The notes beneath the pieces are model-generated. The model was not told the DNA's origin. It did not search any database and was given only the letters and a program-made list of their open reading frames with translations. Below, piece after piece: positions 4,001 through 23,126 of a DNA stretch of 64,000 bases (its first letter is position 1; each line of letters opens with the position of its first letter). The stretch lies in the NCBI GenBank assembly GCA_035545015.1, contig DASZZD010000059.1, forward strand, positions 58,864-122,863, given 5' to 3'. This DNA is from Phycisphaerae bacterium (GTDB lineage: Bacteria > Planctomycetota > Phycisphaerae > WQYP01). A program made the translations under genes and the position numbers.

Positions 4001-4561
4001 CGTCACCGCCGCCAGCCCCGCCATTGACCACGCCATCCCCTTCCTCGCCAGCTTCTTCCGCAGCCGCCCCAGCGCCCGTTCCACCTGCTTGCCCGCCCCA
4101 TCCTCCGACGTCCCCAGCGCCTCGCCCACCTCCCGCAGCGTCAGCCCCTGATAAAACCGCAGCAGCACCGCCGTGCGATCCCGCGCCGGCAATCCCATCA
4201 CCAGCACATCGATGATCCGTACGAACTCCGCCTGCTCCACGTGCTCCGCCGCACTGATGTCGCACGACCGCATGGACACCTTCCGTTCATGAATGCTTCG
4301 CCGGCGCCGGGCGCGATTGGCCGCCCGGGCCGTGTGGCACGTCGCGCGAAAAAGCCACCCGCTCACGCGCGCCCGCTTCATCCCCCTCGCCACGCGCGCC
4401 AGCAGCATGAATACCGCCTGCGTCACATCCTCCGCAGTCGCCGGATCCCCGGTCTGCCGGCGCGCAACGGCATACATCCACCCGCTATGCCGGCGCACCA
4501 GCTCATGAAACGCCTCGGCCTCGCCCGCGGCGTAACGGCCCACCAATGTCTCATCATCCAT
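1028..4561 (-). CDS. ECF-type sigma-70 factor domain fused to a TM segment, ~850-aa periplasmic beta-rich region and C-terminal TlpA-like thioredoxin domain
   Basis: ORF 1028..4624; N-terminus has sigma-70 region 2/4 (ETLVGRYAAG...LTLREVGEALG), then a hydrophobic anchor (LGAMLAVATVAVWVF) and a C-terminal WATWCGPC thioredoxin motif; start at 4561 (MDDETL) or 4624. Confidence 0.75.
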   Translation of the reverse strand: MDDETLVGRYAAGEAEAFHELVRRHSGWMYAVARRQTGDPATAEDVTQAVFMLLARVARGMKRARVSGWLFRATCHTARAANRARRRRSIHERKVSMRSCDISAAEHVEQAEFVRIIDVLVMGLPARDRTAVLLRFYQGLTLREVGEALGTSEDGAGKQVERALGRLRKKLARKGMAWSMAGLAAVTESAKAAPMGLAGRVASGTLTGRAAPAILRLAKGARRTMGRKTLAVKGLGAMLAVATVAVWVFCAAGRAADVGQREMRVTVVDDATGKAVSGATVEYGFGVAARSVVAGADGVAEVPLPAREPTDWDMETSSPGYLQQETMWMDSPRIRALPAESQVRLSRGEQIGGIVVDAQGKAVGGAHVLVQARRARRYAEEGSFAEDKTYETVTTDGQGMWHSVCPIGEGTVCYVAVHGDGWYLPTTEVDMSEKALPALRARQMRLVAKQAGRIRMAVTRADGTAAVGARVCVYGMAGAQSLGKTDREGKVELTDVPPGEVSGAVQVPDQAAQVIKAHVAAGETVVMTMHLAASKPLRGQVVNRWGKGIGGARVTPAWNGVDWATQTDADGRFVWPGVPGEAVQVYVDAPGMFPPKGKVMLTPEGENKIMCAPVSKVTIKATDAGTGAALSDAQATEVSGPDIYGGSGGLPVLADSQGVMNAWFFMHRSAHWLRIRAAGHVARIVGPFADDTGDLTASAALQAGIPTKGIVRGPDGQPVSGAIVARTDPRGDLEVRDDKATGYEQTRTDAAGRFAFDPQGQNTWLWVSGDEGYAWVSESEAGEIRLRPWGKLRLKIEAGDKPSRGTLFVLWSGAGGMASASHVSMDWSQVAIDDAGVATLDRVPEGKLTVRRMQRVQQGHIQWRDDLGYGDAPVAIASGKTTEVQWVGGATVTGKLDVPAEIADKWTGADSHLSAEGAALAVPAEFNRWSEREKMGWLVRHPEAPKSNPDEHQFRALVEMEPDGRFRVTNVPPGTYSLRLRISVPAPPGTPDANVDTEELQGLSQVGETICHLVVSKDGGNVDVGELSMGAVREVKVGKEAPDFTVRTLDGSAVSLSELRGKWVLVDIWATWCGPCVEETPNIKATAAAGRKEGLAVMGVTFDRDLDKAREYVKEEGMTGAGWVQAAASGWGSSEVEPYALGIPQIYLVDPHGRIVAAGLRGEGMAEKVEALMTGKR

Positions 4562-4645
4562 GCCCTGTTTCCCTGTCCCCATCGCCATGCCCGCTGACCC
4601 CCAAAATCCGACGCACCTTTTCAAAAATCGCGAAAAATTCCTATT

Positions 4646-5368
4646 TCAGCGATTTTCAAAGAACGCCCGCACCCACGCCGCGGCCGAATCCATCGCAAAC
4701 GGTTTGCCCGTCCAGCCCTCGGCAGTGGCAGCCGGAACGCTGATCGCCGCAATTCCCGCCGAACGCGACACCACCACCGCCGTCGCCCCCTCGCCCAGCT
4801 CCAAAGCGTAGCGAGCGTACTCCTTTTTGTGCAGACCCGTTGTCGCCCGCCGGGCAAGATCCTGCGCAACGGCCGACCATTGCTCAGCCCACACCACCAG
4901 CACGCGCTCCGCACGCCCCGTCGCCAGCAGCCGCCCCGCCGCCGTCAGCGCGCCCGCCACCGCATCCTCGGGCGCAAACGCCAGCGTTTCGCACGGCCCC
5001 TTGATGCCAAACGCAATCGCCACCGCCGCCGCGATGCTCGAATACACGCTGCGCGAAAACAACCGCGGCGATGCGAATTTTCCCCCGGCCTCAAACATGC
5101 TGTCGAGATACCCCACCGTCGCATCGATCGCCCCCCACGCGCTCACGCAGATCAATCCAATTTCTTCCCCCGAAACCTCCACCGAATCGCTCATCGTCCA
5201 CGCCTGATGGGCCGCCCGGATCGCCAGCGCCGCCAGACGTTCTTGCGCCGCCACCTTTTCCACGGGCAAAATGTCGCAGCCGGGCGCGTGGGGAGCCACC
5301 TCCGCGATCGCCGCCACCTCGTCGGTAACGATCCCCGCCCCCGCAAGATACAAGACCCGCTCCATCAC
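4646..5368 (-). CDS. Truncated beta-ketoacyl synthase-like protein lacking the TACSS active-site Cys (chain-length-factor/ApeC-like partner)
   Basis: 240 aa with KS-like GIKGPCETLAFAPEDAVAGALTAAGRLL but no catalytic Cys/His half; ATGA overlap with the upstream KS gene. Confidence 0.7.
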   Translation of the reverse strand: MMERVLYLAGAGIVTDEVAAIAEVAPHAPGCDILPVEKVAAQERLAALAIRAAHQAWTMSDSVEVSGEEIGLICVSAWGAIDATVGYLDSMFEAGGKFASPRLFSRSVYSSIAAAVAIAFGIKGPCETLAFAPEDAVAGALTAAGRLLATGRAERVLVVWAEQWSAVAQDLARRATTGLHKKEYARYALELGEGATAVVVSRSAGIAAISVPAATAEGWTGKPFAMDSAAAWVRAFFENR

Positions 5369-6618
5369 CCTTCCTCCCGCGCGAACACCAGCGCCGTGTT
5401 GTTGCCGCCAAACGCAAAATTTGTGGACATCACCGCGCGCAGAGAACGCTCGCCACCCGCGTATATATGGTTGCGCGGCACAGGAAGCCGCATCGCGGGA
5501 TCGCCATCCCCTTCCTCACTCCCCGCATTCGGTGGGATGCAATTTTCACGGAGGGCCTGAATGCACAGAATCGCCTCCACCGCTCCCGCCGCCCCAAACG
5601 TGTGCCCGGTGCAGCGCTTCGTGGAACTCACCATCGGCAGCGGCGAGATGTTGCCGAAAAGCGTCCCCAGGGCGGCGGCTTCCATGGCGTCGTTGTCCTT
5701 CGTCCCGGTGCCATGGGCGTTGATGTAACCAATGTCGGCAGCCTGCAACCGGGCCCGTGCCAACGCATCGCGCATGGCGCGAATCGCCTGAACCCCGGCA
5801 GGATCGGGAGCGGTGATATGGTAGGCATCGCACGTGACGCCAAAGCCGCGCAAATAGGCAAGGATCGGAGCGTTGCGGGCGCGGGCGTGATCCGGGTGCT
5901 CCAGAATCAGCATGCCGGCGCCTTCGCCAACGGTCATGCCCGGACGATGCGCATCGAACGGCCGGCAACCCTCCGGGGCCGTCACTTTGAGCGCGTGAAA
6001 CCCCGACAACACCACCCGGCAAAGCGCTTCACTGCCCCCCACCAGGGCAATCTCGCATTCGCCCAACGCAATCGCGTCCGCGGCCGCGCCGATCGCCATG
6101 GCGCTGCCCACACACGTCGTCAGGCACACCTCCCGCAGCCCGGGCGAACGCGCCATGCGGTGGCGCCGGGCGAGCAGTTCGCCCACTTCGTAAGGCTGAA
6201 GCCGGCGCATGAGGCGGATATCGGCGGTGTCCGGGTTCTGCCGATATTGCGCGGCGAAGCGTTCGTTTTTGTCCATGCCGCACACGGTCGTGGCGACAAA
6301 CAGGCCGATCTCCTCGCCGTCGCCTTCGCGGAAACGCTCGGGGAGGCGGGCGTCGGCGAGGGCTTCGTCGGCCGCGAGGCAGGCGAGCTGCTGCGTGCGC
6401 GACAGGGCGTTCCAAAGGCGCGGGGGCAAATCGGCGGGGCAGGGTAGGTCGGCGGCACACCGGGCGACCTTCACGGAGCGCAGCGGATGGCCGGCCTCAA
6501 TTTCGGGCCACGGTTGCAGGACGTCGCGGGCGGCGGCGACGCCTTGCCATGTCACGGCAACGCCGATGCCCTGGGCGGTGACCGCCCCCATTCCTGTAAT
6601 GGCCACCGCTGAAGTCAT
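5365..6618 (-). CDS. Beta-ketoacyl-ACP synthase (KAS I/II family, FabF/ApeO-like)
   Basis: 417 aa; Cys in TTCVGSAMAIG, His motifs INAHGTGTKDND and GHTFGAAGAVE, C-terminal NFAFGGNNTALVF. Confidence 0.85.
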   Translation of the reverse strand: MTSAVAITGMGAVTAQGIGVAVTWQGVAAARDVLQPWPEIEAGHPLRSVKVARCAADLPCPADLPPRLWNALSRTQQLACLAADEALADARLPERFREGDGEEIGLFVATTVCGMDKNERFAAQYRQNPDTADIRLMRRLQPYEVGELLARRHRMARSPGLREVCLTTCVGSAMAIGAAADAIALGECEIALVGGSEALCRVVLSGFHALKVTAPEGCRPFDAHRPGMTVGEGAGMLILEHPDHARARNAPILAYLRGFGVTCDAYHITAPDPAGVQAIRAMRDALARARLQAADIGYINAHGTGTKDNDAMEAAALGTLFGNISPLPMVSSTKRCTGHTFGAAGAVEAILCIQALRENCIPPNAGSEEGDGDPAMRLPVPRNHIYAGGERSLRAVMSTNFAFGGNNTALVFAREEG

Positions 6619-10822: not shown

Positions 10823-11731
10823 ATGCGCGTGCTTGTGACGGGCGGGGCGGGGTTTATCGGGTCGAATCTGGCGAAGCGGCTGGAGCGGGAGGGGCATGGG
10901 GTGACGGTGCTGGATAATTTTTCGTCGGGGAGTTTTGCGAATCTGGTGGATTTCGAGGGGGAGGTGGCGAGCGGGGAACATGGGGCGAATGAGCCATGTA
11001 CGAAGTGCGAGGTGATTTTTCATGAGGCATCGATCACGGACACGACGGTGACGGATCAGTTGCAGATGATGCGGAACAATGTGGAGGGGTTTCGGCATGT
11101 CTTGGGGTGGGCGGCGCGGTGGGGGGCGCGGGTGGTGTGGGCGTCGAGCGCGGCGGTGTATGGGAATCAGCCGGCGCCGAACCGGTTGACGGACAAGCCG
11201 GAGCCGTTGAATGTGTACGGGTATTCCAAGCTGGCGATGGAGCGGCTGGCGAAGCGGTGGGCGTCGGAGCATTCGGACGTGCCGATCATTGGGTTGCGGT
11301 ATTTCAACGTGTATGGTCCCGGGGAGAAGCACAAGGGGAAGTTTGCGAGCATGATTTATCAGTTGGCGCAGCAGATGAAGGGGGGGCATCGGCCACGGAT
11401 TTTCAAGTTTGGGGAGCAGAAGCGGGATTTTGTGTCGATCGAGGATGTGGTGGCGGCGAATCTGCTGGGGATGAAGGCGGATCATCCGCCGCAGGCGGGG
11501 GTATTTAACGTGGGGAGCGGGGCGGCGCATACGTTTAATGAGGTGGTGGCAGGGTTGAACGCGGCGCTGGCGACGGCGTACGAGCCGGAGTACATCGATA
11601 ATCCGTATGCCTTTTTTCAGGTGCATACGGAGGCGGATATCACCGAGACGCGGCGGGTGCTGGGGTATGCTCCGAAGTATACGGATGTGAAGGAGGGGAT
11701 ACGGGCGTATGCGGAGGCGGGGGGGTTGTAG
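10823..11731 (+). CDS. NAD-dependent epimerase/dehydratase (ADP-L-glycero-D-manno-heptose 6-epimerase-like)
   Basis: VLVTGGAGFIGSNL Rossmann motif, YGYSKL catalytic YxxxK, RYFNVYGPGEKHKGKFASMIYQ typical of HldD-type epimerases. Confidence 0.85.
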   Translation: MRVLVTGGAGFIGSNLAKRLEREGHGVTVLDNFSSGSFANLVDFEGEVASGEHGANEPCTKCEVIFHEASITDTTVTDQLQMMRNNVEGFRHVLGWAARWGARVVWASSAAVYGNQPAPNRLTDKPEPLNVYGYSKLAMERLAKRWASEHSDVPIIGLRYFNVYGPGEKHKGKFASMIYQLAQQMKGGHRPRIFKFGEQKRDFVSIEDVVAANLLGMKADHPPQAGVFNVGSGAAHTFNEVVAGLNAALATAYEPEYIDNPYAFFQVHTEADITETRRVLGYAPKYTDVKEGIRAYAEAGGL

Positions 11732-11792
11732 GGAAAAATTGGAAAAATTGGGTCGATGGGTTCAATTGGGGAGGGCGCGGTGTGGAGGTTTG

Positions 11793-12587
11793 ATGGGATT
11801 GGTTGTGCGACAGGGTGTGTGGGTGGCGGTGGTGTTGGTGGTGGGGGGGGGGGCGGTGTTGGGTATGGGGGTGGCGCGGGGGGAGGGTGGGGATGCGGGG
11901 GGGGGGGATGCGGTGAAGGTGTTGGGGGAGCGGTTGGGGGAGATGAAGGATGTGCGGACATTGCATGCGCGGTTTGTCTGTGAGAAGGATTTGGCACTAT
12001 TGGAGACGCCGCTGGTGAGTTCGGGGGAAGTGTGGATTCGGCGGGGCGGGGAGGGGGAGAAGGAGGGCGGCGCGGGCAGCGGGGCGGCGGTGCGATTTTC
12101 GACGGAGAAGCCGTATGTGTCAGAGTTGATTCTGGTGGAGGGGAAGGTGTATGCGCGGTCGCAGCATGAGGAGTCGTGGAGCAAGAGCAATCAATCGTCG
12201 CGGCCGGGGTTGACGGCGGTGATGGGGCAGTTGGGCGGGTGGGCGACCGGGGACGCGGGGAAGGTGTCGCAGATGTACAGCGTGGCGTTGGCGGCGGGGA
12301 AGGAGGCGGAGATACCGGCGGTGCCGAAGGAGGGGGGGGAGTTGCATGTGGAGGCGGGTGGGGGGGGGAAGGGGGTGGATGTGTTCGTGTTGACGCCGAC
12401 GAATGAGGATTTGGCGAAGGCGGTGAAGAAGATCACGTTGGCGGTGGATCGGGGGACGGGGGGGCTGGAGTATATTTCGATAGAGACGGAGCAGGGGGAT
12501 GTGACGCGGTATTGGTTTGGGGATGTGGAGCGGAATGGGGAGTTGCCGAAGGATGTGTTTGAGGCGAAGGAGGGGGAGGCCCGGTGA
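11793..12587 (+). CDS. LolA-like outer-membrane lipoprotein carrier family protein
   Basis: Signal peptide from Met 11793 (MGLVVRQGVWVAVVLVVGGGAVLG); LolA-like beta-barrel pattern (LHARFVCEKDLALLETPLVSSGEVWIRR...ILVEGKVYAR); sits before the MMPL gene. Confidence 0.6.
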   Translation: MGLVVRQGVWVAVVLVVGGGAVLGMGVARGEGGDAGGGDAVKVLGERLGEMKDVRTLHARFVCEKDLALLETPLVSSGEVWIRRGGEGEKEGGAGSGAAVRFSTEKPYVSELILVEGKVYARSQHEESWSKSNQSSRPGLTAVMGQLGGWATGDAGKVSQMYSVALAAGKEAEIPAVPKEGGELHVEAGGGGKGVDVFVLTPTNEDLAKAVKKITLAVDRGTGGLEYISIETEQGDVTRYWFGDVERNGELPKDVFEAKEGEAR

Positions 12588-12647
12588 TGGCGGTAAATGG
12601 CCACGAAAAACACGAAGGGCACGAAAGACGTGGTAATTGCTATGACC

Positions 12648-13241
12648 TCAGGGGGGCGGGGGCAGCGGGGATTGGGGCTGGGTGAGTAAGACGGGGAAGG
12701 CGGCTTCTGCGGGGGAGCGCTTGGTGATGGCTTCGTCGAGGACGCGGCGGAGGGTTTCGAGGTCGATGCCGGGGAGGGCGCCGGTGGGGATGGGGATGAA
12801 GGAGTTGACGGAGACAATCAGGAGGAAGCGGGGCTTGAGGAGGGCGGTGGCGAAGTTGTACCAGGGGGTGGTCTGTGCGTGTTGGGCGTGCTCAATATGA
12901 AGCGTGTCGGCGGTGAGGCGGAGGCGGACGGGGGTGGAGACGGGAATTTCGGAGCGGCAGCGGACGGTGGCGGCGCGGATGAAGCTGATGAGGAGGGGGA
13001 GGAGGGGGGCGGCGAAGAGGGCTGTGCGCAGGAGCATGTCGGGCAGGGGGTCGGGCGCGGCAGTTGTATCCGGAGGGAAGCGGGAGACGAGGATGCTGGC
13101 GGATGTGCCGCCCGCGAACAGTAGGAAGAGGAAGATGTAGAGAACGAGGCCGGTGGTGTTGCCCCAGCGGAAACGGCGGATGATCGATTGGGCTTCGGCG
13201 AGTTCTTCGGGGGAGAGGGTAAATTCGAGGGGGATGTCCAT
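12648..13241 (-). CDS. Hypothetical membrane protein
   Basis: 197-aa ORF with two hydrophobic helices (GLVLYIFLFLLFAGG; LLRTALFAAPLLPLLISFI); no recognisable family. Confidence 0.35.
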   Translation of the reverse strand: MDIPLEFTLSPEELAEAQSIIRRFRWGNTTGLVLYIFLFLLFAGGTSASILVSRFPPDTTAAPDPLPDMLLRTALFAAPLLPLLISFIRAATVRCRSEIPVSTPVRLRLTADTLHIEHAQHAQTTPWYNFATALLKPRFLLIVSVNSFIPIPTGALPGIDLETLRRVLDEAITKRSPAEAAFPVLLTQPQSPLPPPP

Positions 13242-13339
13242 GGGGGCATTCTAGCGACGGGCGGGAGGGGAGGCGGGGGCGGGAGGGGGAGGGTTGGTTT
13301 AGAATGCGGGGGTTGTTTGGCGCGCGTGGTTGATGGAAT

Positions 13340-16300
13340 GTGATGGGCATGGATCGGCGGGTGATGCGGCGTGCGGGGGTGGTGGTGGTGCTGGGGGTGA
13401 TGGGGGCGGTGTTTTCGTGGCTGTCGGCGGGGGTGCGGTGGAATGGGGATGTGCTGGCGTTTTTTTCGTCGGGGTCGGCGGAGGTGGGGAATGTGCGGGC
13501 GGCGGTGGAGGGCGGGGGGAGCGAAGGGCCGGGCGGAGAGTTGCGGATCGATGTGCATGGGGTTGATGGGAAGGCGGCGTCGCGGGCGGCGGTGGAGGCG
13601 GGCGCGCGGGAGTTGGCGGAGCGGTTGCGGGGGACGGGGTTGTTTCGGTGGGTGTGGAGCGGAGTGGACCCGGCGCGGGCGGCGGCGGCGTATGGGGAGC
13701 TGGTGGGGGAGGCGCCGGTGCTGGAAGATGTGGATGCGAAGGGGTTGGAGGGGCGGATGTCGGCGGGGGCGCTCGAGGCGCGGTTCGCGGCGGTGAAGGG
13801 GAAGCTGGCGGATCCGGATGGGGAGCTGTTGCTGCGGCAATTGCAGGGGGACCCCTTGGGACTGGGGAGCGCGGTGGGGGAGCGGCTGAGGGCGCTGGCG
13901 CCGGGTGGTGAGGGAAGTGGCGCGAGTTTGGACGATGGGGTGTTGGCGGCGCGGGATTCAGGCGGGGGGTGGCATGCGATGGTGGTGGCGGAGCCGGTGG
14001 CGGCGGCGTCGGACATGAAGGGGGCGGAGCAGGTGGTGGCGGCGACGGACGCGGCGGTGGCGGGGTTGAAGGGGCAGGGGTTGGCGGGGTGGGTGGTGGG
14101 GGCGCATCGGGGGTATGTGGAGAATGCGCAGCGGGTGAAGCGGGATGTGATGTGGGTGTCGGCGGCGGGCACGGTGGGGGTGGCGTTGCTGATTGCGGGA
14201 TTTTTTCGGCGGGTGCGGGCGGCGGCGTTGTGCATGATTCCGCCGTCGATCGGGGTGGGGATTGCGCTGGGGATAGCGGGGATTTTTCGCGTGGAGTTGC
14301 CGCTGCTGCTGTTGGGGTTTGCGGGGTTGTTGTGCGGGTCGACGACGGATTACGGTATCCAGTTGATCGCGGAGTGCCGGCGGCTGGCGCGGGAGGCGGG
14401 GGGCTGGCGGGAGGAGATTCCATGGCGTGCGGCGCGGCGGATGGTGGGGCCGATCTCGATGTCGGTGGCGACGAGCGTGACGGGGTTTGCGGCGTTGGGG
14501 CTGTCGGAGGCGCCGGGGCTGCGGGCGATGGGGTTGTTCGTGGCGGGGGCGACAGTGTGCATCTGGGTGGTGACGTTTGCGGTGATTCCGGTGTTTCTTG
14601 GGCCGTGGGTGTTGGGTTTCGCAAGCGGGAGGACTTGGCGGGCGCGGCGATGGATTTGGTGGGTGGGTGTGAGCGCGTTCGTGGTGGTGACGGTGGGGGT
14701 GTTTTTGCCGGCGGCGGGGCGGGTGCGGTTCAATGCCGATGCGCGGCGATTGGATGGATCGTCGGCGGCGCTGCTTTCAGACGAGGACAGTTTTTACAAG
14801 GTGTGGGGGGATATTCGGAATCAGGCGGTGGTGCTGGTGAGCGCGCCGACGGCGGCCGGGGCGCTCGAGGCGCAGGAGCGGGTGGCGGATTACCTGGGGG
14901 ATTTGCAGCGGGATGGGCGGATTGCGGGGGTGACGTCGGCGGCGGGGATTTTGCCGGATGAGGCGACGGCAGCGGCGCGCGTGGCGGCGTGGAAAAAATT
15001 CTGGACCCAGGAGCGGCGCGGGGAATTGCGGGACCGGTTGGCGGCGGCGGCGCGGGCGAATGGGTTTGCGCCGGCGGCGTTCGCGGCATATGCGGATCGG
15101 GTGGCGGAGGTGGCGGCGCCGGATGCGGAGCGGGAGTTGAAGGATTCGCCGGCGGCGCTGTTGCCGGGATTTATCAGCAAGGGGGCGGACGGTTCGGTGA
15201 CCTTGGCGATGGTTGTGCGGATGAATCCGGTGGGGGAGGCGGTGGGGGATGTGTCGTTGCGGCTTGCGACGGCGTGGGCGAAGGAGTTGCGGTTGCGGTT
15301 TGAGCAGTTGCCGGGAATAGAGACGCCGCGGATTCTTTCGGGGAACGTGCTGCTGTTTGATGCGACGGATCGGGCGCGGGCGGAGGCGGAGCGTTTTGCG
15401 CCGTGGTGCCTGGTGGCGATTTTGGTGCCGCTGTGGATTTACTACCGGTCGCTGCGTCGGGCGTGGCTGGTGACGGGGTGCCTGGTGGTGGGGTTTGTGT
15501 GGGTGCTGGGGGCGGCGGGGCTGATGGGGGGCGGATTGAATTTGTTGTCGCTGGTGCCGCTGCTGTTCACGCTGGGGGTGGCGGTGGATTATGGCGTGTA
15601 TGCGGCGGCGGGGGCGCGCGGGGATTTTTCGGAGGAGGAGGCGGGGCGGAAACGGCGGGCGACGGCGCTGTGCGCGATGACGACGATTGTGGGGTCGGGG
15701 GCGCTGGTGCTGGCGGGGCATCCGGCGCTGCGGTGGCTGGGGCTGACGCTGGTGGCGGGGATTGCGGGGGGGTATCTGACGGCGTTGTTTGTGGTGGGGC
15801 CGGTGGTGCGGTGGTCGGCGGCGCGCGCGGCGGGGATGCGGCGGTCGGTGGTGCGGCGCGTGGGAGGGTGGGTGTTGACGGCGGGGCTGGCGATGTTGAC
15901 AGTGCTGGTGGCGTTGCCGCCGTTGGTGGAGTGGCGGTTGTCGGCGGAGAGGCCGGCAGTGATCGAGGCGAAGGGGGATGCGCCGTTGCGGCAGATTGGG
16001 AGGCGGCAATTTGCGGTGGGAGATTCGTGGATGCGGTATCGGGCGACCTCCGGCGAGGCGGGGATTTGGGAAATTCGGCTTGCGGGGACGCCGGCGGAGC
16101 GCGGGCGGGCGGTGAGTCTGCTGGCGAGCCCGCTGGATTGCCGGATTGAATCGGAGATGCTGGATCAGTTGGATACACTGCTGCCGGCGGAGTGGTCGCG
16201 GTGGCTGCTGCTGCGGGCGGTAGGGGTGGATTTTGCGAGCTTGCCGGCGTGGATACCGGCGGAGGACCAGCAGGAGTTGTATGCGGCGGCGACCTCTTAT

Positions 16301-17608
16301 GAGGATCCGCATTCGTATCTGGCCCCGACGTATTCGCGGCTGTTGGCGTATCACGCGCTGCATGATGTGTCGCAGATGCTGATCGACAATCCGCTGATCG
16401 TGCCCAACACGTTTGCGTGCACGGGGGTGGTGTCGTTGCCGGGATATACGGGGGGTGGGGGGGGGGATGGGCATCTGCTGCTGGGGCGGGATTTTGATTT
16501 TGAGGGGGGGGAATCGTTCGGGCGGCAGAAGTCGGTGACGCTGGTGATACCGCCGGATGGCGAAGGCATTCCGTATGCGCATGTGGCGTGGCCCGGCTTG
16601 GAGGGCTGCGTGACGGGGATGAACCGGGAGAAGATTGCGTTGTTCATCAACGCGGCGGCGACAAAGGATTTTCGGCGGATCGGGACACCGACGATTCTGA
16701 TGGCGCGCGAGGTGCTCGAGCAGGCGCGGTCCATCGCGGATGCGGAGCGGATCATTCGGGGGACGCAGGTTTTCGTGTCGGACATCCTCGTGGTGGCGGA
16801 TGGAAAGACCGGCCAGGCGCGGGTGTTTGAGAAATCGCCGGGGGCGACGGCGGCTTACGATGTGGACGAATCCGTGGCGGTGACGAATCATCTGGTGACG
16901 CCGACGTTTGCGGATGATCCGGTGAACAAGGGGCGGATCAGCGACAGCACGACGATGCAGCGCTATCAGCGTGCGCGCGAGCTGCTGGATGGGATGAAGG
17001 GGAGCGTGACCCCGGAGAAATTGGCGGGGCTGCTGCGGGACAAGAAGGGCGTGGGGGGGAAGGACCTGGGGTATGGGAATCGCAATGCGATCGACGGGCT
17101 GATCGCGTGTCATTCGGTGATCATGGATGTGACGGCGGGGCGGATGTGGGTGGCGGGCTGGCCGAACGCGGAGGGGGAGTATTTGTGTTTTGATGTGCTG
17201 GGGCTGCTGAGCGGGCGGAGTGTGGCGGCGAGTGCGCCGAAGGGGGAGGGGGAGGATGTCTCGCGGGGGGCGATTCCTGCGGATAGGATACTGACCGATG
17301 GGCCGCCCTCGACCTGGCAGCGGGTGCTGGAGGGGCGGCGCGCCGGGGAGCGTGCGCAGGCGGCTTTTGCGGCAGGGGATTTGCGAGGGGCGCTGGCGGC
17401 GGCGGAGGAAGTGGTGGCGGCGAACCCGGGATTTTACCTGGGGCACGCGCTGCGGGGCCGGGCGCTGTTTGGCCTGGGCCGGTATGAGGAAGCGAAGGCG
17501 GCGTTGGAGCGGGCGCTGGATGCCGATCCGCCGTATGCGGCGCGGCGCAAGGGGCTCGAGGAACTTTTGGAGCAGTGCAAGAAACGGTTACACGACGGTA
17601 AGACATGA
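13340..17608 (+). CDS. MMPL/RND-superfamily exporter fused to a C-terminal peptidase-C45 (acyl-CoA:6-APA acyltransferase-like Ntn hydrolase) domain and TPR repeats
   Basis: Single 1422-aa ORF: two 6-TM bundles with large periplasmic loops (MMPL topology), then NTFACTGVV...LLGRDFDFEGG...GMNREKIALFINAA (C45/Ntn motifs) and C-terminal TPR (GDLRGALAAAEEVVAANPGFYLGHALRGRALFGLGRYEEAKAALERAL). Confidence 0.8.
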   Translation: MMGMDRRVMRRAGVVVVLGVMGAVFSWLSAGVRWNGDVLAFFSSGSAEVGNVRAAVEGGGSEGPGGELRIDVHGVDGKAASRAAVEAGARELAERLRGTGLFRWVWSGVDPARAAAAYGELVGEAPVLEDVDAKGLEGRMSAGALEARFAAVKGKLADPDGELLLRQLQGDPLGLGSAVGERLRALAPGGEGSGASLDDGVLAARDSGGGWHAMVVAEPVAAASDMKGAEQVVAATDAAVAGLKGQGLAGWVVGAHRGYVENAQRVKRDVMWVSAAGTVGVALLIAGFFRRVRAAALCMIPPSIGVGIALGIAGIFRVELPLLLLGFAGLLCGSTTDYGIQLIAECRRLAREAGGWREEIPWRAARRMVGPISMSVATSVTGFAALGLSEAPGLRAMGLFVAGATVCIWVVTFAVIPVFLGPWVLGFASGRTWRARRWIWWVGVSAFVVVTVGVFLPAAGRVRFNADARRLDGSSAALLSDEDSFYKVWGDIRNQAVVLVSAPTAAGALEAQERVADYLGDLQRDGRIAGVTSAAGILPDEATAAARVAAWKKFWTQERRGELRDRLAAAARANGFAPAAFAAYADRVAEVAAPDAERELKDSPAALLPGFISKGADGSVTLAMVVRMNPVGEAVGDVSLRLATAWAKELRLRFEQLPGIETPRILSGNVLLFDATDRARAEAERFAPWCLVAILVPLWIYYRSLRRAWLVTGCLVVGFVWVLGAAGLMGGGLNLLSLVPLLFTLGVAVDYGVYAAAGARGDFSEEEAGRKRRATALCAMTTIVGSGALVLAGHPALRWLGLTLVAGIAGGYLTALFVVGPVVRWSAARAAGMRRSVVRRVGGWVLTAGLAMLTVLVALPPLVEWRLSAERPAVIEAKGDAPLRQIGRRQFAVGDSWMRYRATSGEAGIWEIRLAGTPAERGRAVSLLASPLDCRIESEMLDQLDTLLPAEWSRWLLLRAVGVDFASLPAWIPAEDQQELYAAATSYEDPHSYLAPTYSRLLAYHALHDVSQMLIDNPLIVPNTFACTGVVSLPGYTGGGGGDGHLLLGRDFDFEGGESFGRQKSVTLVIPPDGEGIPYAHVAWPGLEGCVTGMNREKIALFINAAATKDFRRIGTPTILMAREVLEQARSIADAERIIRGTQVFVSDILVVADGKTGQARVFEKSPGATAAYDVDESVAVTNHLVTPTFADDPVNKGRISDSTTMQRYQRARELLDGMKGSVTPEKLAGLLRDKKGVGGKDLGYGNRNAIDGLIACHSVIMDVTAGRMWVAGWPNAEGEYLCFDVLGLLSGRSVAASAPKGEGEDVSRGAIPADRILTDGPPSTWQRVLEGRRAGERAQAAFAAGDLRGALAAAEEVVAANPGFYLGHALRGRALFGLGRYEEAKAALERALDADPPYAARRKGLEELLEQCKKRLHDGKT

Positions 17609-18342
17609 GCAACGATGCGAAGAGATTTGGCCGGGCGATGCTGGTGATGATGTGCGGGGCGGCGGTAACGTGGGGTGGCTGTCAGAGCGCGGGACAGCAG
17701 ACGGTGGGGGTGTCGGCGCCGACGGCGGAGCAGATGCGCGTGAAGGCGGCGCTGGCGCAATGGCCGCCGGAAGCGCCGGCGGGTTCGCTGACGGGCGTGA
17801 AGCGGACGTTTTTTTGCACGATCCGGATTTTGGGGCAACGGACGACGGCATCGGGGGTGCTGAGCTATTACGGGCCGCGGGATTTTCGCATCACGGCGGT
17901 GACGGAGCTGGGGGTGATTTTGTTTGATGCGCGGATGAATTGGGCGGGGGTGACGGTGCTGCGCGAGATGCCGGGGTTGCCGGTATCGAGCGTGGAGGCA
18001 TTGGTGGGGGATTTGTCGGCGGTGTTTCATTTGCCGGAGAATTTGAACGGTTTGTCACCGGCCGGCGGAGATCGGCTCATCCTGAAGCGGACGGAGGCGG
18101 ACACGCACAAGTACACGTGGACGTTTGACGCGGCGAGCGGGCGGCTGAAACAGATCGATGTGGATATGGGGGCGTTCGATACGCTGCACGTGCAGATCAA
18201 GGGCTATGACGGGCGGGGTTGGCCGATGGAACTGGTGATCTCGCGGAAGGCGCGGTTTTACACAGTGAATCTGAGTTTCACGGATGATCCGGTGGTGCGC
18301 CGGGACGGGGGCGCGGGCGGGAGCATGAGGGTGGGACCGTGA
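17605..18342 (+). CDS. Hypothetical lipoprotein
   Basis: Lipobox MLVMMCGAAVTWGGC; ATGA overlap with the MMPL stop and 4-nt overlap with the downstream ligase, so translationally coupled. Confidence 0.6.
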   Translation: MSNDAKRFGRAMLVMMCGAAVTWGGCQSAGQQTVGVSAPTAEQMRVKAALAQWPPEAPAGSLTGVKRTFFCTIRILGQRTTASGVLSYYGPRDFRITAVTELGVILFDARMNWAGVTVLREMPGLPVSSVEALVGDLSAVFHLPENLNGLSPAGGDRLILKRTEADTHKYTWTFDAASGRLKQIDVDMGAFDTLHVQIKGYDGRGWPMELVISRKARFYTVNLSFTDDPVVRRDGGAGGSMRVGP

Positions 18343-19634
18343 GTGGGTGGGGCGAGCATTTGTTCTGGGAAGAGGAGCGGTGGCGGGAGTTGCAGGCGCG
18401 TCGTGCGGCGGCGCACCTGCGGCAGGCGGCGAAGAGCGGGTTGTATGCGGGGCGCGGGTTGGAGGGCGTGGGGCAGATTGCGGCGCGGGAGTTGGAGAGC
18501 GTGTGGGGGCAGCTTCCGCTGACGAGCAAGGATGAACTTTCGGCGGCGGGGCGAAACGCGTGGGCCGTCAGAGCGGAAGATGTACGCGAATGGGTGTGCA
18601 CGTCGGGGACGACAGGGCGGCCGCTGGATGTGCCGATGACCGCGGGAGATTTGGAGCGATTGGCGGAGAACGAGGCGGCGGCGCTGTCGCTGGCGGGATT
18701 GCGTGCGGGGGATTTGTGCGTGCTGGCGGTGGGAATGGATCGGATGTTCGTGGCGGGGCTGGCGTATCACCGGGGAGCGCAGAAGATCGGGGCGGCGAGC
18801 GTGCGAGCGGGGGCGATCGTGGCGGCGCAGGGGGGGATGTTGCGGGAAATCGTGGGGCGGGTGGGAGGGCGTGGACAAAGAGTTTTTGTGATTGCGGTGC
18901 CTTCGTTTTTGACGGGGGTGGAGCGGCCAGATGGCGGGGTCGAAGCGGTGATTGCAATTGGGGAGCCGGTGCGGAATGAGGATGGCTCGGCGAATGTGTT
19001 GGCGCGGCGCGTGGGGGAACGTTTGGGATGCGCGGTGTTCTCGACGTATGCGTTGACGGAGACGTGCACGACGTTTGCGGAGGGGCCGGGATGCGTGGGC
19101 GGGCATGTGAATCCGGCGCTGGGGGTGGTGGAGATTGTGGATCCGGAGAGCGGGCGCGCGATGGAGGAGGGAGCGGTGGGGGAGGTGGTGGTGACGCCGC
19201 TGGGAGTGGAGGGGATGCCGCTGGTGCGGTTTCGGACGGGGGACATGGCGTGGCTGCGCGGGGGTCGGTGCGCGTGCGGGCGCACGACGCCGCGCGTGGG
19301 GCCGATCGTGGGGCGCCGGCAGCAATTGCTCAAGATACGGGGGACATCGGTGTATCCGGCGGCGATTCTGGAGGCGGTGCGCGGGACGGCGGGCGTGGCG
19401 GATTGCTGCATCATCGCGGAGAGCGAGCATGCGCTGAGCGACCGGGTGACGGTGGCGGTGGCCGTCGTTGAGGGGAAGGGAGAGGGCGTGCGCGGGGAAT
19501 TAAGCGGGCGCTTGCGGGCGCTGTTGCGGGTGGCGCCGGAGGTGCGGGTGGTCGGCGCGGGCGAGTTGCAGGAGCTGCAGCTTGCAGGAGGGCGGAAGGT
19601 GCAGCGGTTTGTGGATCGGCGGCACGGAATGTGA
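18339..19634 (+). CDS. Adenylate-forming enzyme of the phenylacetate-CoA ligase / CoF390 synthetase (PaaK) family; possible acyl-ACP/CoA synthetase
   Basis: AMP-binding motif TSGTTGRP, LLKIRGTSVYPAAILEAV typical of the PaaK family C-terminus. Confidence 0.8.
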   Translation: MSGWGEHLFWEEERWRELQARRAAAHLRQAAKSGLYAGRGLEGVGQIAARELESVWGQLPLTSKDELSAAGRNAWAVRAEDVREWVCTSGTTGRPLDVPMTAGDLERLAENEAAALSLAGLRAGDLCVLAVGMDRMFVAGLAYHRGAQKIGAASVRAGAIVAAQGGMLREIVGRVGGRGQRVFVIAVPSFLTGVERPDGGVEAVIAIGEPVRNEDGSANVLARRVGERLGCAVFSTYALTETCTTFAEGPGCVGGHVNPALGVVEIVDPESGRAMEEGAVGEVVVTPLGVEGMPLVRFRTGDMAWLRGGRCACGRTTPRVGPIVGRRQQLLKIRGTSVYPAAILEAVRGTAGVADCCIIAESEHALSDRVTVAVAVVEGKGEGVRGELSGRLRALLRVAPEVRVVGAGELQELQLAGGRKVQRFVDRRHGM

Positions 19635-19705: not shown

Positions 19706-20626
19706 ATGCAGAGCAATTGGCGTCGGGAACGGGCGAATCTGGCACTGATTATCACGTGCGGGGCGGTGGGCCTGGCGGTGGCGGTGCCGGCGATCGGGCA
19801 GGCGCGCGGCAACGCGCAGCGGACAGCGTGCGCGTCCAATTTGCATCAGTTGGGCATCGCGCTCAATACGTATGCGGCGGAGTTTGATTCATGGATGCCG
19901 CTGACGGGGACAAACTCGGCGACGCGCTACAACGTGCGGATGGCGGGAGACAAGGCGCCCAAGGGCGAGGCGCTGACGGACAACGATCCGTCGGCGGCGT
20001 TGTGGCTGGTAGTCGCCGACGGGATTGTCCGGCGGACGACGGTGTTTTTGTGTCCGGCGGATCCGTTTGCGGGACCGAATGGCGGCGGGCAGGCGGCGGC
20101 GCTGAAGGATGACAGCGGCAAGGCATACGAGACGTTTCAATCCGGCAAACAGTTGAGTTATTCGTCGCGCTATCCATGGACGGAGACGGACAAGGCGGCC
20201 AAGGCGGGTCCGTGGATGAGGCTGGTCACCATTCCGAGAGATGAGCCGGTGATGACGGACATGGCGCCTTACCTGAGTGCGAAGGCGCAGGCGGGGGAAG
20301 CGGTGACCGGACCGGCGGCGGCCAGTGCGCCGGCCGGGGGCAACGGCGGGCTGGTGCTGGGCGGCGGCTTGGACGCCGGACCCATGGTGAATTCGCCGAA
20401 CCACAACCAGGAAGGGCAGAACTTGTTGTTCGGAGATGCCCATGTCGAGTGGTCGGACGCGCCGCACTGGCAGGGGACGGGCGATCATTTGTGGACCGAA
20501 GTGGTGGATGACAAGCAGGTGGCGATCGATGCGGGGGAACTGCCGGCGGTGATTCCCGGCGGGGCGAAGGGGCCGTATGACATTGTGATGGTGCCCACAC
20601 GCTCGGCCAAGGGGGAATTGAAGTAA
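19706..20626 (+). CDS. DUF1559 / H-X9-DG-type prepilin-like protein
   Basis: N-terminal hydrophobic pseudopilin-like helix plus QRTACASNLHQLGIALNTY, and C-terminal HNQEGQNLLFGDAHVEW (H-X9-DG-like); family typical of Planctomycetota/Verrucomicrobiota. Confidence 0.7.
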   Translation: MQSNWRRERANLALIITCGAVGLAVAVPAIGQARGNAQRTACASNLHQLGIALNTYAAEFDSWMPLTGTNSATRYNVRMAGDKAPKGEALTDNDPSAALWLVVADGIVRRTTVFLCPADPFAGPNGGGQAAALKDDSGKAYETFQSGKQLSYSSRYPWTETDKAAKAGPWMRLVTIPRDEPVMTDMAPYLSAKAQAGEAVTGPAAASAPAGGNGGLVLGGGLDAGPMVNSPNHNQEGQNLLFGDAHVEWSDAPHWQGTGDHLWTEVVDDKQVAIDAGELPAVIPGGAKGPYDIVMVPTRSAKGELK

Positions 20627-20638
20627 CGGCGCGGGAGT

Positions 20639-21229
20639 TCAGGGAGCCGCGGGTTGAGTGGCGGGGCGGGCTTGGGCGAGTGCGTTGTAGCGTTGGACGG
20701 CGTCGTTGCGCTGGGAGATGAGGGACTGGATCGAGGCGGCGGCCTGTTTGAGCTCATCGACGGCTTTGTTGTATTGGGTGGCGAGATCGTTGTAACGGGA
20801 GACGGCGGCGTTGCGGTCGGCGGCGAGGGCTTCGACGCGCGCGGCGGAAGCTTTGAGGGCGGCATCCCGGGCATTGACGGCGGCGCTCCATTGGGTGAGG
20901 GCTTTTTTCTGTGCGTCGACCGTGGCCTGGAGGTCCTTGCGCTGGCTGGTGAGCCTGGCGACATCCTGGCGCGCGGTGTCAAGGTCTTTTTGGGTGGATT
21001 GGAGGGCGTCGTCGGTGCGGTTGATGCGGCTGCGGAATTCATCGAGATCGTCGTGGAGAGCGGCGATGGTTTTGGTCTGATCGTCGAGTTTGGCGGTGAG
21101 CGTTTGTTGGGCGGCTTGAGCGCCGAGGAGTTCGAGGTGGAGGGTGCGCGAGGCGGACCACTGGATGGCGCAGAGGCTGGCAAGAGTGAGCACGCCGAGG
21201 AAATTGATGCAGGTGAGAACGGTTTTCAT
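20639..21229 (-). CDS. Coiled-coil protein with N-terminal signal anchor (ExbBD-TonB operon accessory)
   Basis: MKTVLTCINFLGVLTLASLCA anchor, then Q/A/L-rich heptad coiled coil; 4-nt overlap with the exbD stop. Confidence 0.55.
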   Translation of the reverse strand: MKTVLTCINFLGVLTLASLCAIQWSASRTLHLELLGAQAAQQTLTAKLDDQTKTIAALHDDLDEFRSRINRTDDALQSTQKDLDTARQDVARLTSQRKDLQATVDAQKKALTQWSAAVNARDAALKASAARVEALAADRNAAVSRYNDLATQYNKAVDELKQAAASIQSLISQRNDAVQRYNALAQARPATQPAAP

Positions 21230-21672
21230 GGGGTGGGTGCTCCTGCGGCGACGGGTGTGTTGCCGATTTCGAAGGCGACTTTGTCGATGCCGGCGAGACG
21301 CGCCGCATCGAGCGCGCGGATGACGTCGCCGTGATGGGCGTCCTTGTCGGCGCTGATGAAGACGCGAAGGGCGGGGTTGGCCTGCCGGGCGGATTGGAGG
21401 GTGGCGGTGAGCTCATTGGTGGCGACGGGTTTCTTGTCCAGGAACAGACCGCCGGTTTTGTCGACAGAGATGTCGGCGTAATCCTTTTTGACATCGGTGG
21501 CGGCGGAAACGGCGGTGGGGAGGTTCACCGGGACGCTTTTGAGGTTGACCATGGAGAGGCTCACGAGCATGAAGGAGGCAAGGAGGAAGAACATGATGTC
21601 GATGAGGGGGATGATTTCGATGCGCGCTTCGGCGTTGTCCTGATGGAGGGTGGAGGAGAGTTTGAGGGGCAT
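21226..21672 (-). CDS. exbD: Biopolymer transport protein ExbD/TolR
   Basis: IEIIPLIDIMFFLLASFMLVS TM helix and periplasmic domain with ALRVFISADKDAHHGDVIRALDAARLAG. Confidence 0.85.
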   Translation of the reverse strand: MPLKLSSTLHQDNAEARIEIIPLIDIMFFLLASFMLVSLSMVNLKSVPVNLPTAVSAATDVKKDYADISVDKTGGLFLDKKPVATNELTATLQSARQANPALRVFISADKDAHHGDVIRALDAARLAGIDKVAFEIGNTPVAAGAPTP

Positions 21673-21690
21673 GGGAGGCCTTTCGATTGG

Positions 21691-22365
21691 TCAGTGGTCA
21701 GCGGTCAGGGAGGGGGTGAAGGATTCGAGGTCGTGGCCGTGGTGTTTGGCGGAGTGGGCGAGGAGTTCAGCGTGGTTGATGGTGCGTTCGAGGCGTGAGC
21801 GAAGGTGGGCGATGCGGCGGTTGAAGAAGTTGTAGGGCAGGAGGCAGAGGATGGCGATGGAGAGGCCGCAGGCGGTGGCGATGAGAGCTTCGGCGATGCC
21901 GCCGGAGACTTTGGAGGCGGCGAGTTGCTGGTCGCCGACGAAGCTGAAGGATCGCATGATGCCGGTGACGGTTCCCAGGAGGCCCAGGAGCGGGGAAAGG
22001 GTGATGAGGGTTCCAAGGATCCATTGGAGCCGCTCGGCGTGGGTGAGTTCATCGGAGGCTTTGAGCTGCATGGCGCCCAGGAAGGAGGAGCGGGCGTGGA
22101 GGAGGCCGGCATGGAGGGTGGAGAGGAAGGGATCGGCGGGGTTGTTGGACAGGCGGAGTGCGTCGGTGAAGCGGCCATCGGCGAGGGCGTCGAAAGTTTG
22201 GTCGAGAGTGTCGGCGTGCGTGCGCCGGCGGAGGTTGGCCCACCAGAGGGAGCGTTCGAGGATGACAGTGAGGGCGGCGAGGAGCGCCAGCAGGATGGGC
22301 CACATGATGGGGCCGCCCTTGATAAAGTAATCGACGAGGAGGTTTGCGAGCGGGGGGATGTGCAT
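21691..22365 (-). CDS. exbB: MotA/TolQ/ExbB proton-channel protein
   Basis: Three-TM ExbB pattern with [14 protein letters not shown] and [17 protein letters not shown]. Confidence 0.85.
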
Positions 22366-22388
22366 GGGACGTCCTTATGTGTTTGGAG

Positions 22389-23126
22389 TTAATGAGCGAG
22401 TTGGAACTCGATAGGGACTTCGTAAAGGCGGGGCTTTCCGGGGGGAAAATGCCAGGTATGGAGGACGGCGTCGCGCGCGGCCTGGTTGAGGAGTGGCCAT
22501 GGGGAGGGAGCAATGATGTCGATGTGGGTGACTTTGCCGGCGGGATTGACGGAAAACCGGAGGCGCACGGTGCCTTGCTGGTGTTCCAAGATGGCTTGGC
22601 GTGGATAGTCGGGGAGGGGCTGGTTGCCTTCACCTTGGCCGAGAGTGAGCTGCGCGACCTGCGGCGGCGGGGGCGGCGCAGGCGGAGGGGGGCCTGGGGC
22701 ACCGGCATGACCGTCGCCGGCGGCGCCTGAGGGGGGCATCGCGCCGGAGGCTTGTTCAGGGCTCACGAGGCGTGTAAGGCCGGCGATGGGGACGGCGAAG
22801 GAGAGCGCGGGATCCGGGGCGGCGACGGGGATCATGGCGGGGGCGGCGGGCAGGGCGGGAGGCTGGGGCGCGGCGGGGGCAGGGAGAGGGGTGGCGACGG
22901 GCGCAGGCTGGGGCGTGGGCGAGGGCGGCGGCGCCGGTTGAGGTTGCGGTGCCAGCGTAGCCTTGATCATCCGGGCCTGGACGGGCAGTGGCGGGGGCGG
23001 CTGAGACGTTGGGCGCGGGTAATGCAGGAGGAGGCCAAGCGTTCCCACGGCGGCGGCGAACAGCCAGAGCACGAGGGTAAAGAGCCCTGTGAGCGGGAGG
23101 GCATTGGTGTTGTTTTCAGAAGGCAT
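22389..23126 (-). CDS. tonB: TonB energy transducer
   Basis: Start MPSENNTNAL at 23126; N-terminal TM, Pro-rich spacer (PQPQPAPPPSPTPQPAPV), C-terminal TonB domain (GTVRLRFSVNPAGKVTHIDII...ARDAVLHTWHFPPG); the upstream part of ORF 22389..24020 is shadow. Confidence 0.8.
   Translation of the reverse strand: MPSENNTNALPLTGLFTLVLWLFAAAVGTLGLLLHYPRPTSQPPPPLPVQARMIKATLAPQPQPAPPPSPTPQPAPVATPLPAPAAPQPPALPAAPAMIPVAAPDPALSFAVPIAGLTRLVSPEQASGAMPPSGAAGDGHAGAPGPPPPAPPPPPQVAQLTLGQGEGNQPLPDYPRQAILEHQQGTVRLRFSVNPAGKVTHIDIIAPSPWPLLNQAARDAVLHTWHFPPGKPRLYEVPIEFQLAH

Follow-up and report, generated by a model that had tools for sequence, protein, structure and literature searches.

The window analysed here is a stretch of 64,000 nucleotides from a Phycisphaerae bacterium (contig DASZZD010000059.1, positions 58,864 to 122,863), and the gene in question lies at positions 13340 to 17608 of its forward strand. 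In a single reading frame, it joins a transporter of the RND/MMPL type, an additional thirteenth transmembrane (TM) helix, a peptidase C45 domain of the cysteine N-terminal nucleophile (Cys-Ntn) class, and a terminal TPR region. The fusion is a real and conserved gene of uncultured Phycisphaerae bacteria. By analogy with known systems, its product is probably an exporter of an envelope lipid of the aryl-polyene (APE) or flexirubin type, derived from a type II polyketide or fatty acid synthase, in which a tethered periplasmic amidase or transacylase would mature the cargo. The parts of the gene, and the evidence on which each is delimited (AF2, AlphaFold2 model), are the following.

13340..17608, + strand: whole fusion gene, with RND/MMPL transporter, TM13, C45 domain and TPR; 1422 codons
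13340..15835, + strand: RND/MMPL lipid transporter, residues 1-832 (AF2, Foldseek, conserved Asp)
15848..15946, + strand: extra helix TM13, residues ~837-869, with hydrophobic core at 840-865 (hydropathy, AF2 helix)
15977..17209, + strand: C45 Cys-Ntn hydrolase/acyltransferase domain, residues ~880-1290 (NF040521, AF2, Foldseek)
16418..16420, + strand: codon of Cys1027, predicted Ntn nucleophile and autoproteolytic site between A1026 and C1027 (invariance, alignment, model)
17312..17602, + strand: TPR region of five helices, residues ~1325-1421 (Pfam TPR_2/TPR_19, AF2)

A conserved fusion gene

The initial annotation had described an uninterrupted open reading frame (ORF) of 1422 residues that holds a complete 12-TM MMPL/RND transporter, a C45/Ntn-like C-terminal part and a terminal TPR, and this description was borne out in all its parts. 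The reading of the ORF gave zero internal stops over the 1422 codons. The start is probably the ATG at 13343, because the database copy of the protein (P0001, 100% identical) has 1421 residues; this copy belongs to a Phycisphaerae metagenome-assembled genome (MAG) and bears only the NCBI name “C45 family autoproteolytic acyltransferase/hydrolase”. In Pfam, the fusion protein matches MMPL (PF03176) at residues 224-444 (30.2 bits, gathering cut-off 20.5), AAT/C45 (PF03417) at residues 1045-1237 (46.9 bits, cut-off 23.2) and, at residues 1338-1401, both TPR_2 (30.7 bits, cut-off 27) and TPR_19 (31.3 bits, cut-off 25), which correspond to C-terminal helices in the structural model. The NCBIfam model C45_proenzyme (NF040521) is matched end to end at residues 916-1269, with 140.5 bits against a cut-off of 85 (7e-41). 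Pfam, the AF2 model and Foldseek agree on the 12-TM transporter, the C45 assignment combines two families above their curated cut-offs with a fold like that of isopenicillin-N acyltransferase (IAT), and the three C45 motifs quoted in the initial annotation were located at residues 1023, 1047 and 1093.

The architecture recurs in many independent assemblies. A whole-protein search returned 22 further full-length fused proteins with 39-86% identity, plus a more distant one (P0038) at 28%. Scanning of GTDB, with one genome for each species, gave 28 related loci, all in MAGs of Phycisphaerae/Planctomycetota, and about 17 of these 28 species loci carry a fused gene with the MMPL, C45 and TPR segments in order. 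Locus L017 belongs to a MAG assigned to Phycisphaera mikurensis. When the C45 part alone was used in an exhaustive HMMER search, 1651 representative clusters were found, 255 of which at E<1e-30. Fusions with a length of 1,200 residues or more, in which C45 starts at residue ~800-890, account for 23 of the 150 best representatives. A second, more distant fused clade, with proteins of ~1,285-1,310 residues, shows MMPL, C45 and TPR matches in Pfam in the members sampled, and one of its members is located on a 6.9-Mb contig.

A sequencing or assembly error that deleted the stop codon between separate MMPL and C45-TPR genes could generate the same picture in a single genome. Errors do occur in such MAGs, as indicated by the fragmented copies of the gene in two indel-rich long-read assemblies (L009 and L035), and a truly split arrangement is present in another phylum. 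However, the breaks in the fragmented copies fall at many points and not at the MMPL-C45 junction, and the in-frame fusion, with a conserved linker and TM13, is found in ~23 protein clusters, in ~17 independent species genomes and in the second clade. The initial annotation had itself raised a read-through error, together with a C-terminal part that is not C45-like, as possible objections. The former is effectively refuted by the conservation across many independent assemblies, and the family matches given above dispose of the latter. The architecture is already in public databases, but under generic names, and a literature search found no paper that mentions an MMPL-C45-TPR fusion.

Transporter, helix 13 and predicted periplasmic enzyme domain

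In the transporter half, TM1 spans residues 2-31, TM2-6 residues 255-419, TM7 residues 436-460 and TM8-12 residues 668-832, with two periplasmic domains at residues ~34-254 (between TM1 and TM2) and ~461-667 (between TM7 and TM8). Residues 1-870 were modelled with AF2 from a 49-sequence alignment (predicted local distance difference test score, pLDDT, 90; predicted template modelling score, pTM, 0.86), and hydropathy agrees with 12 TM helices and large periplasmic domains in the same two positions. In full-length Foldseek comparisons, the closest solved structure is HpnN (5khn, E 2e-22), followed by MmpL3/4/5. These proteins have in common with the window transporter the 12-TM fold, the two periplasmic domains and the Asp-Tyr proton-relay pairs, at 13-19% identity, and are without a 13th helix or a periplasmic enzyme domain. 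In MmpL3, the Asp-Tyr pairs of TM4 and TM10 form the proton relay. The corresponding pairs of the fusion protein are D337/Y338 in TM4 and D750/Y751 in TM10, and they are well conserved in the alignment of 49 sequences (D337 in 49/49, Y338 in 38/49, D750 in 48/49 and Y751 in 46/49; alignment A4). On these grounds, the transporter half looks complete and functional. The HpnN, HAE3 and MMPL models of NCBIfam give matches in each of the two halves of the N-terminal part, but with scores far short of the equivalog cut-offs, and an assignment as HpnN orthologue was rejected (TIGR03480, 80 bits against 751.85; NF052374, 20.7 bits against 1100). Another enzyme-transporter fusion was observed in Desulfurivibrionaceae, where the MMPL homologue P0039 (1017 residues) carries S-adenosylmethionine (SAM) methyltransferase domains.

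After TM12 come an Arg-rich cytoplasmic loop, RWSAARAAGMRRSVVRR, and then TM13, for which both AF2 models show a long helix. Homologue P0029 (841 residues), which is MMPL-only, stops inside the Arg-rich tail, just ahead of helix 13. RND transporters have a cytoplasmic C-terminus and, since an Arg-rich loop and TM13 come after it here, the fused C45-TPR part should be periplasmic. Independent support for this predicted location is given by the stand-alone C45-TPR relatives of 500-640 residues, whose signal peptides are visible in their sequences: of 89 such proteins, 81 begin with a hydrophobic segment at the N-terminus, and a lipobox-like motif occurs in 8 (e.g., LLLGAC in the C45-TPR proteins of Thermoanaerobaculia). 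Similarly, in proteins where C45 is fused to an acyltransferase or a deacetylase, a positively charged stretch and a TM helix precede the C45 domain. A third architecture is represented by P0033 and P0024 (loci L005 and L036; ~1,070-1,120 residues), in which the downstream lipoprotein is fused to the MMPL C-terminus and its lipobox signal peptide serves as the 13th helix; the C-terminal extension of P0033 is homologous to the lipoprotein encoded in the window (E 7e-11). The joining of a predicted periplasmic partner to the C-terminus of the pump by means of one extra helix is a recurring solution.

The C-terminal half was modelled separately, as residues 830-1422, from 58 sequences (pLDDT 91.9, pTM 0.92). 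The model contains TM13, an Ntn alpha-beta-beta-alpha sandwich and the five C-terminal TPR helices. Its best fold match in Foldseek is IAT (2X1C/2X1D, E 2e-14, TM(target) 0.72), followed by acid ceramidase (ASAH1) and NAAA, both as uncleaved precursors, whereas bile-salt hydrolases and penicillin V acylase are more distant. The comparison with IAT is drawn from the fold search, because a profile search of the Protein Data Bank sequences was swamped by TPR matches and the single-sequence match to IAT was weak (E 0.015). IAT, a member of peptidase family C45, belongs to the same Pfam and NCBIfam family and has a self-cleaving Cys nucleophile, with 18% identity; however, it is a soluble, peroxisomal and fungal enzyme that uses acyl-CoA, while the window domain is membrane-tethered, predicted to be periplasmic and followed by a TPR tail. 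An acyl-CoA:6-aminopenicillanic acid/isopenicillin-N acyltransferase function is unlikely on topological grounds, the domain being predicted periplasmic, and no penicillin pathway genes are present. ASAH1 and NAAA, which are eukaryotic lysosomal proteins of MEROPS family C89, show the same Cys / Arg-x-x-Asp / Asn arrangement at 13-15% identity, and the match includes their alpha-subunit. Both act on N-acyl lipid amides.

The predicted subunits are an alpha-subunit of residues ~880-1026 and a beta-subunit that begins at C1027. In the 58-sequence alignment (A3), C1027, F1052, D1053, N1095, N1183, R1211, R1233, D1234 and H1258 are invariant (58/58), R1050 is present in 57/58 and T1028 is nearly invariant; the residue that precedes C1027 is Ala in 43/58 and Gly in 15/58, which is compatible with cleavage. 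The conservation of this catalytic set spans fused and stand-alone members down to ~30% identity. When aligned, the family Cys column falls on residue 1 of the mature NAAA beta-subunit and, in the AF2 model, C1027 lies directly ahead of a beta-strand that starts at residue 1028. As predicted from alignment and model, the domain looks to have everything expected of an active self-cleaving Cys-Ntn enzyme. A loss of the nucleophile was also considered, as a 22-sequence MAFFT alignment (A2) had put the family Cys column on P1022. This misplacement arose because a 5-residue insertion precedes Cys1027 in the Phycisphaerae clade, at a position where insertions of differing length occur in other members. 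Alignment A3, these insertions (e.g., in P0075, with the same spacing) and the strand start in the AF2 model all assign the nucleophile to C1027, and the loss was rejected.

Two different roles for the C45-TPR part have to be weighed against that of a periplasmic enzyme. If the domain were cytoplasmic, it could use acyl-CoA or acyl-ACP (acyl carrier protein) as fungal IAT does and load the cargo before export; in its favour, IAT, the only characterised C45 enzyme, uses acyl-CoA, and an adenylating ligase is encoded two genes downstream of the fusion. This arrangement is very improbable, as an extra helix comes after TM12, flanked N-terminally by positive charges, and the stand-alone relatives bear signal anchors or lipoprotein signals. 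The C45-TPR part might instead be a non-enzymatic module for lipid binding or docking, for example a cap to accept the cargo or to bring in the LolA-like carrier. TPR repeats serve in protein interactions, and the fusion of a lipoprotein at the same position in P0033 and P0024 suggests that the C-terminus may just be a docking site for periplasmic partners. The full Cys-Ntn catalytic set is nevertheless invariant, which is not expected of a purely structural domain, and a non-catalytic role appears improbable, if somewhat less so than a cytoplasmic one.

Gene context and related systems

The fusion gene is accompanied in the window by genes for a carrier, a lipoprotein and a ligase, and by a synthase pair ~7 kb upstream.

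11709..12587, + strand: LolA-like periplasmic carrier, counterpart of ApeL and flexirubin LolA2 (Pfam LolA, 3.6e-7)
17605..18342, + strand: probable lipoprotein of 245 residues (…TWGGC), ApeN/LolB-like partner (homology, overlap)
18339..19634, + strand: PaaK/FlxY-like adenylate-forming ligase (FlxY_rubin match); 4-nt overlap of its start with the lipoprotein gene
5365..6618, - strand: beta-ketoacyl synthase (KS), 417 residues, partner of the following gene, ~7 kb upstream of the fusion
4646..5368, - strand: chain-length-factor-like (CLF-like) KS (Ketoacyl-synt_2, PF13723), as in ApeC (Pfam)

The stop codon of the fusion and the start codon of the lipoprotein gene share nucleotides (ATGA at 17605-17608). 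The operon coupling claimed in the initial annotation holds for the lipoprotein and ligase genes, which overlap, but not for the LolA-like gene, which lies 752 bp upstream and is uncoupled. Its suggestion of a dedicated machine for the maturation and export of an acyl-lipid is supported by the conserved gene context, while it had overlooked TM13, the module of ApeL/ApeM/ApeN type and the recurrence of C45-TPR proteins, mostly stand-alone and secreted, in such clusters of several phyla. The LolA-like protein has LolA2_flexi as its best NCBIfam match, below cut-off, and its gene lies directly upstream of the transporter gene in relatives. The lipoprotein is homologous to the product of the gene downstream of the MMPL-only P0029, and a DUF3261 match is found in 2/14 members of its family (best E 2e-4). 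The ligase, whose best NCBIfam match is FlxY_rubin (6e-90, 302 bits, below the cut-off of 520), is conserved downstream in nearly all related loci.

The order LolA-like gene, transporter, lipoprotein, ligase is maintained in nearly all related loci (more than 20), with or without the C45 domain. Orthologous loci continue into genes for KS, CLF-like PF13723 proteins, ApeP/ApeI-like dehydratases and ACPs, and include acyltransferases of the PF01553 and Lip_A (LpxL/PatA-like) types, a NodB-like deacetylase, GT2/DUF2062 and radical SAM proteins, as well as a CrtI-like desaturase in some of them (L040, L042). The cluster of KS, CLF, ACP, dehydratase, acyltransferase and glycosyltransferase genes is found in orthologous loci L001, L009 and L040, and also in L041/L042, and homologues of the CLF-like gene adjoin the ligase gene in L009, L010, L011 and L035. 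In a Bdellovibrionales MAG, the order is ACP-KS-CLF, LolA, a transporter of 712 residues, a separate C45-TPR gene with a 4-nt overlap, and a small ORF. This transporter is homologous over its full length to that of the window (hhalign 99.9%, E 2e-31), and the arrangement is, as judged from these alignments, the split form of the fusion gene. In Thermoanaerobaculia, the C45-TPR gene is of the lipoprotein type; it overlaps the gene of a Lip_A acyltransferase and adjoins a KS/CLF pair. C45 is also fused to a PF01553 acyltransferase in P0213, whose cluster contains MMPL, ApeI-like, KS and ACP genes, and to a polysaccharide deacetylase (Polysacc_deac_1) in P0077 and P0223. These independent fusions tie the C45-TPR part to the building and export of a lipid anchor, and not to polyene synthesis.

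The system that most resembles this module is that of the aryl polyenes. A role in carrying the APE lipid to the outer membrane has been proposed for ApeL, ApeM and ApeN (PMC8253772; bioRxiv 10.1101/2020.12.19.423268). Their genes have the same order, i.e., LolA-like protein, RND/MMPL transporter and small lipoprotein, in E. coli CFT073 (c1192-c1190) and Xenorhabdus doucetiae, and APE clusters are likewise associated with KS, CLF, dehydratase, ACP, acyltransferase and GT2 genes. ApeM, however, has 772 residues and ends after TM12, and among the genes read in the E. coli APE cluster there is no C45 or TPR gene. The flexirubin system provides FlxY and LolA2 as the best NCBIfam matches of ligase and carrier, both below equivalog cut-offs; its hosts are Bacteroidota, whereas the host of the fusion is a planctomycete. 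A literature search found no paper that reports a C45 component in flexirubin clusters.

Several observations were made on the surroundings of the gene. The 752-bp gap between the LolA-like and fusion genes (12588-13339) measures 127 bp in the closest relative, L013. It contains a minus-strand ORF (12648-13241) for a two-TM-like membrane protein of 197 residues, which has no match in Pfam or NCBIfam; its third codon positions are 74% C, so that the plus strand is G-rich under an ORF of opposite orientation. The gap may contain a genuine gene or represent an insertion. At 10823-11731 there is a gene for ADP-glyceromanno-heptose 6-epimerase (TIGR02197, above cut-off), which is conserved as the immediate upstream neighbour of the LolA-like gene in L009-L011, L013, L015, L024, L031 and L035; this may reflect a link between the exported lipid and lipopolysaccharide (LPS), or lineage synteny only. 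Past the ligase, at 19706-22730, there are a DUF1559 (planctomycete prepilin-like) gene, which is also present in L013, and small ORFs with no family match. On the minus strand, at 1028-4624, an ORF of 1198 residues combines sigma-70 regions 2 and 4, three CarboxypepD_reg-like domains and a C-terminal redoxin/AhpC-TSA domain, an unusual sigma-factor fusion. As regards composition, G makes up 72% and C 11% of the third codon positions in the fusion gene, and the GC skew of the window is about +0.4 or -0.4 and flips with gene orientation at several points. Among orthologues (loci L011, L012, L013, L001 and L015), the skew ranges from +0.43 in L013 to -0.43 in L011, with most values near 0, which points to a lineage-specific, strand-linked mutational or codon bias.

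Proposed function, rival cargo and significance

In the proposed mechanism, the RND/MMPL pump, as the counterpart of ApeM, would be driven by the proton-motive force and would draw the lipid, complete or almost so, out of the inner membrane. TM13 would lead the chain out, so as to leave the C45 domain and its TPR cap beside the periplasmic domains of the transporter. By analogy with all C45 and Ntn enzymes, the C45 domain would cleave itself between A1026 and C1027, and the beta-subunit with the TPR would be held non-covalently on the alpha-subunit, itself tethered to the pump. The freed Cys1027 would act on the emerging lipid at an amide (or ester) acyl bond; either an acyl or head-group piece would be removed, or the acyl group would be transferred to an acceptor in the periplasm. 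The LolA-like carrier and the LolB/DUF3261-like lipoprotein would subsequently take over the product for delivery to the outer membrane. An amide is a plausible target, because the closest relatives of the family act on amides and because the clusters contain GT2 and a NodB-like N-deacetylase. The best match of the cluster GT2, a weak one, is an N-acetylgalactosamine-phosphate (GalNAc-phosphate) transferase, and the known APE lipid has a GalNAc-phosphate-glycerol head group (bioRxiv 10.1101/2020.12.19.423268).

A number of points weigh against this proposal. Its components correspond only loosely to those of E. coli: the window transporter has 24% identity to ApeM over 379 residues (E 2e-18), a weak similarity that denotes homology and not orthology; the LolA-like protein has no match to ApeL; the lipoprotein is not significantly similar to ApeN by BLAST or hhalign; and the ligase was rejected as an ApeH orthologue, being FlxY/PaaK-like instead. 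By direct comparison, the identification of the lipoprotein as ApeN was rejected, and the weak DUF3261 support remains. In the window, the rest of the pathway is not adjacent, and only the KS/CLF pair is found, 7 kb off. Close relatives of the MMPL-only or MMPL-lipoprotein type have no C45 gene within 10 kb, so that in some lineages the module can do without the enzyme. The AF2 models cover the protein in separate pieces (residues 1-870 and 830-1422), and the position of the active site relative to the transporter exit, the periplasmic location of the fused domain, its self-cleavage, its substrate and the choice between hydrolysis and transfer are predictions from sequence. Finally, the C45-GT2 protein P0153 does not fit a simple periplasmic topology. 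It is a partial Bacteroidota record on a 2.5-kb contig, in which GT2 follows C45 with no predicted TM helix between them, and this arrangement may be a gene-call artefact or reflect another topology.

The cargo could also be of a different nature, i.e., a lipid A/LPS-linked or other glycolipid with unusual acyl groups, or a hopanoid-like lipid, remodelled in the periplasm by C45. In line with this, the nearest solved structure is that of the hopanoid transporter HpnN, the 6-epimerase gene of the LPS core is found directly upstream of the LolA-like gene in many loci, and Kdo hydroxylase and heptosyltransferase genes lie nearby. Genes of the Lip_A_acyltrans (LpxL/PatA-like) type occur coupled to C45 in Thermoanaerobaculia and, in L040 and L041, as fusions to GT2, the two CrtI-like desaturases mentioned above can be added, and no ammonia lyase or other aryl-starter gene was seen in the loci read. 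Conversely, the score of the fusion in the HpnN equivalog model is 80 against a cut-off of 752, and the genes for KS, CLF (PF13723), ApeP/ApeI-like dehydratase and ACP, the FlxY-like ligase and the similarity to LolA2_flexi are marks of clusters of the APE/flexirubin type. A cargo of this other kind is considered unlikely, although it deserves more weight than the non-catalytic or cytoplasmic roles discussed above. It overlaps with the export of an APE/flexirubin-like lipid, in that the mechanism of export and periplasmic editing would be identical in both.

A more far-reaching reading is advanced here tentatively, and we consider it possible but rather less than probable. According to it, the fusion would be the first RND lipid exporter that is covalently coupled to a cargo-modifying enzyme across the membrane, and a pump-fed, self-cleaving periplasmic Cys-Ntn transacylase or amidase would perform the last step in the maturation, or the outer-membrane attachment, of an aryl-polyene-like lipid. 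An example of such a step, to be taken jointly with this reading and at the same tentative level, would be the exchange or removal of an N-acyl group on a hexosamine head group made by GT2 and the NodB-like deacetylase. A functional analogy, and only that, is offered by mycobacteria, where the lipid exporter MmpL3 is followed by the antigen 85 (Ag85) mycolyltransferases, which carry out acyl transfer on the exported lipid outside the cytoplasm. Ag85 is a protein separate from MmpL3 and a Ser alpha/beta-hydrolase, not a Cys-Ntn enzyme.

Among the biosynthetic gene clusters of bacteria, those of the APE type have been described as some of the most widespread (bioRxiv 10.1101/2020.12.19.423268), and the finishing of their lipids and the delivery to the outer membrane are still only a proposal (PMC8253772). 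The fusion, its split form and the fusions to acyltransferase and deacetylase present the C45-TPR protein as a previously unremarked component at the export step. The new aspect is an export module of the Ape type with a built-in periplasmic Ntn enzyme, which is a predicted one and should be taken as a computational lead. Under the more far-reaching reading above, the stand-alone C45-TPR proteins in clusters of Myxococcota, Acidobacteriota and Bdellovibrionota would be the same missing enzyme. If the proposal is true, the system would parallel the division of labour between MmpL3 and antigen 85 in mycobacteria. In general terms, it would mean that RND lipid pumps can be hard-wired to periplasmic enzymes that edit their cargo.

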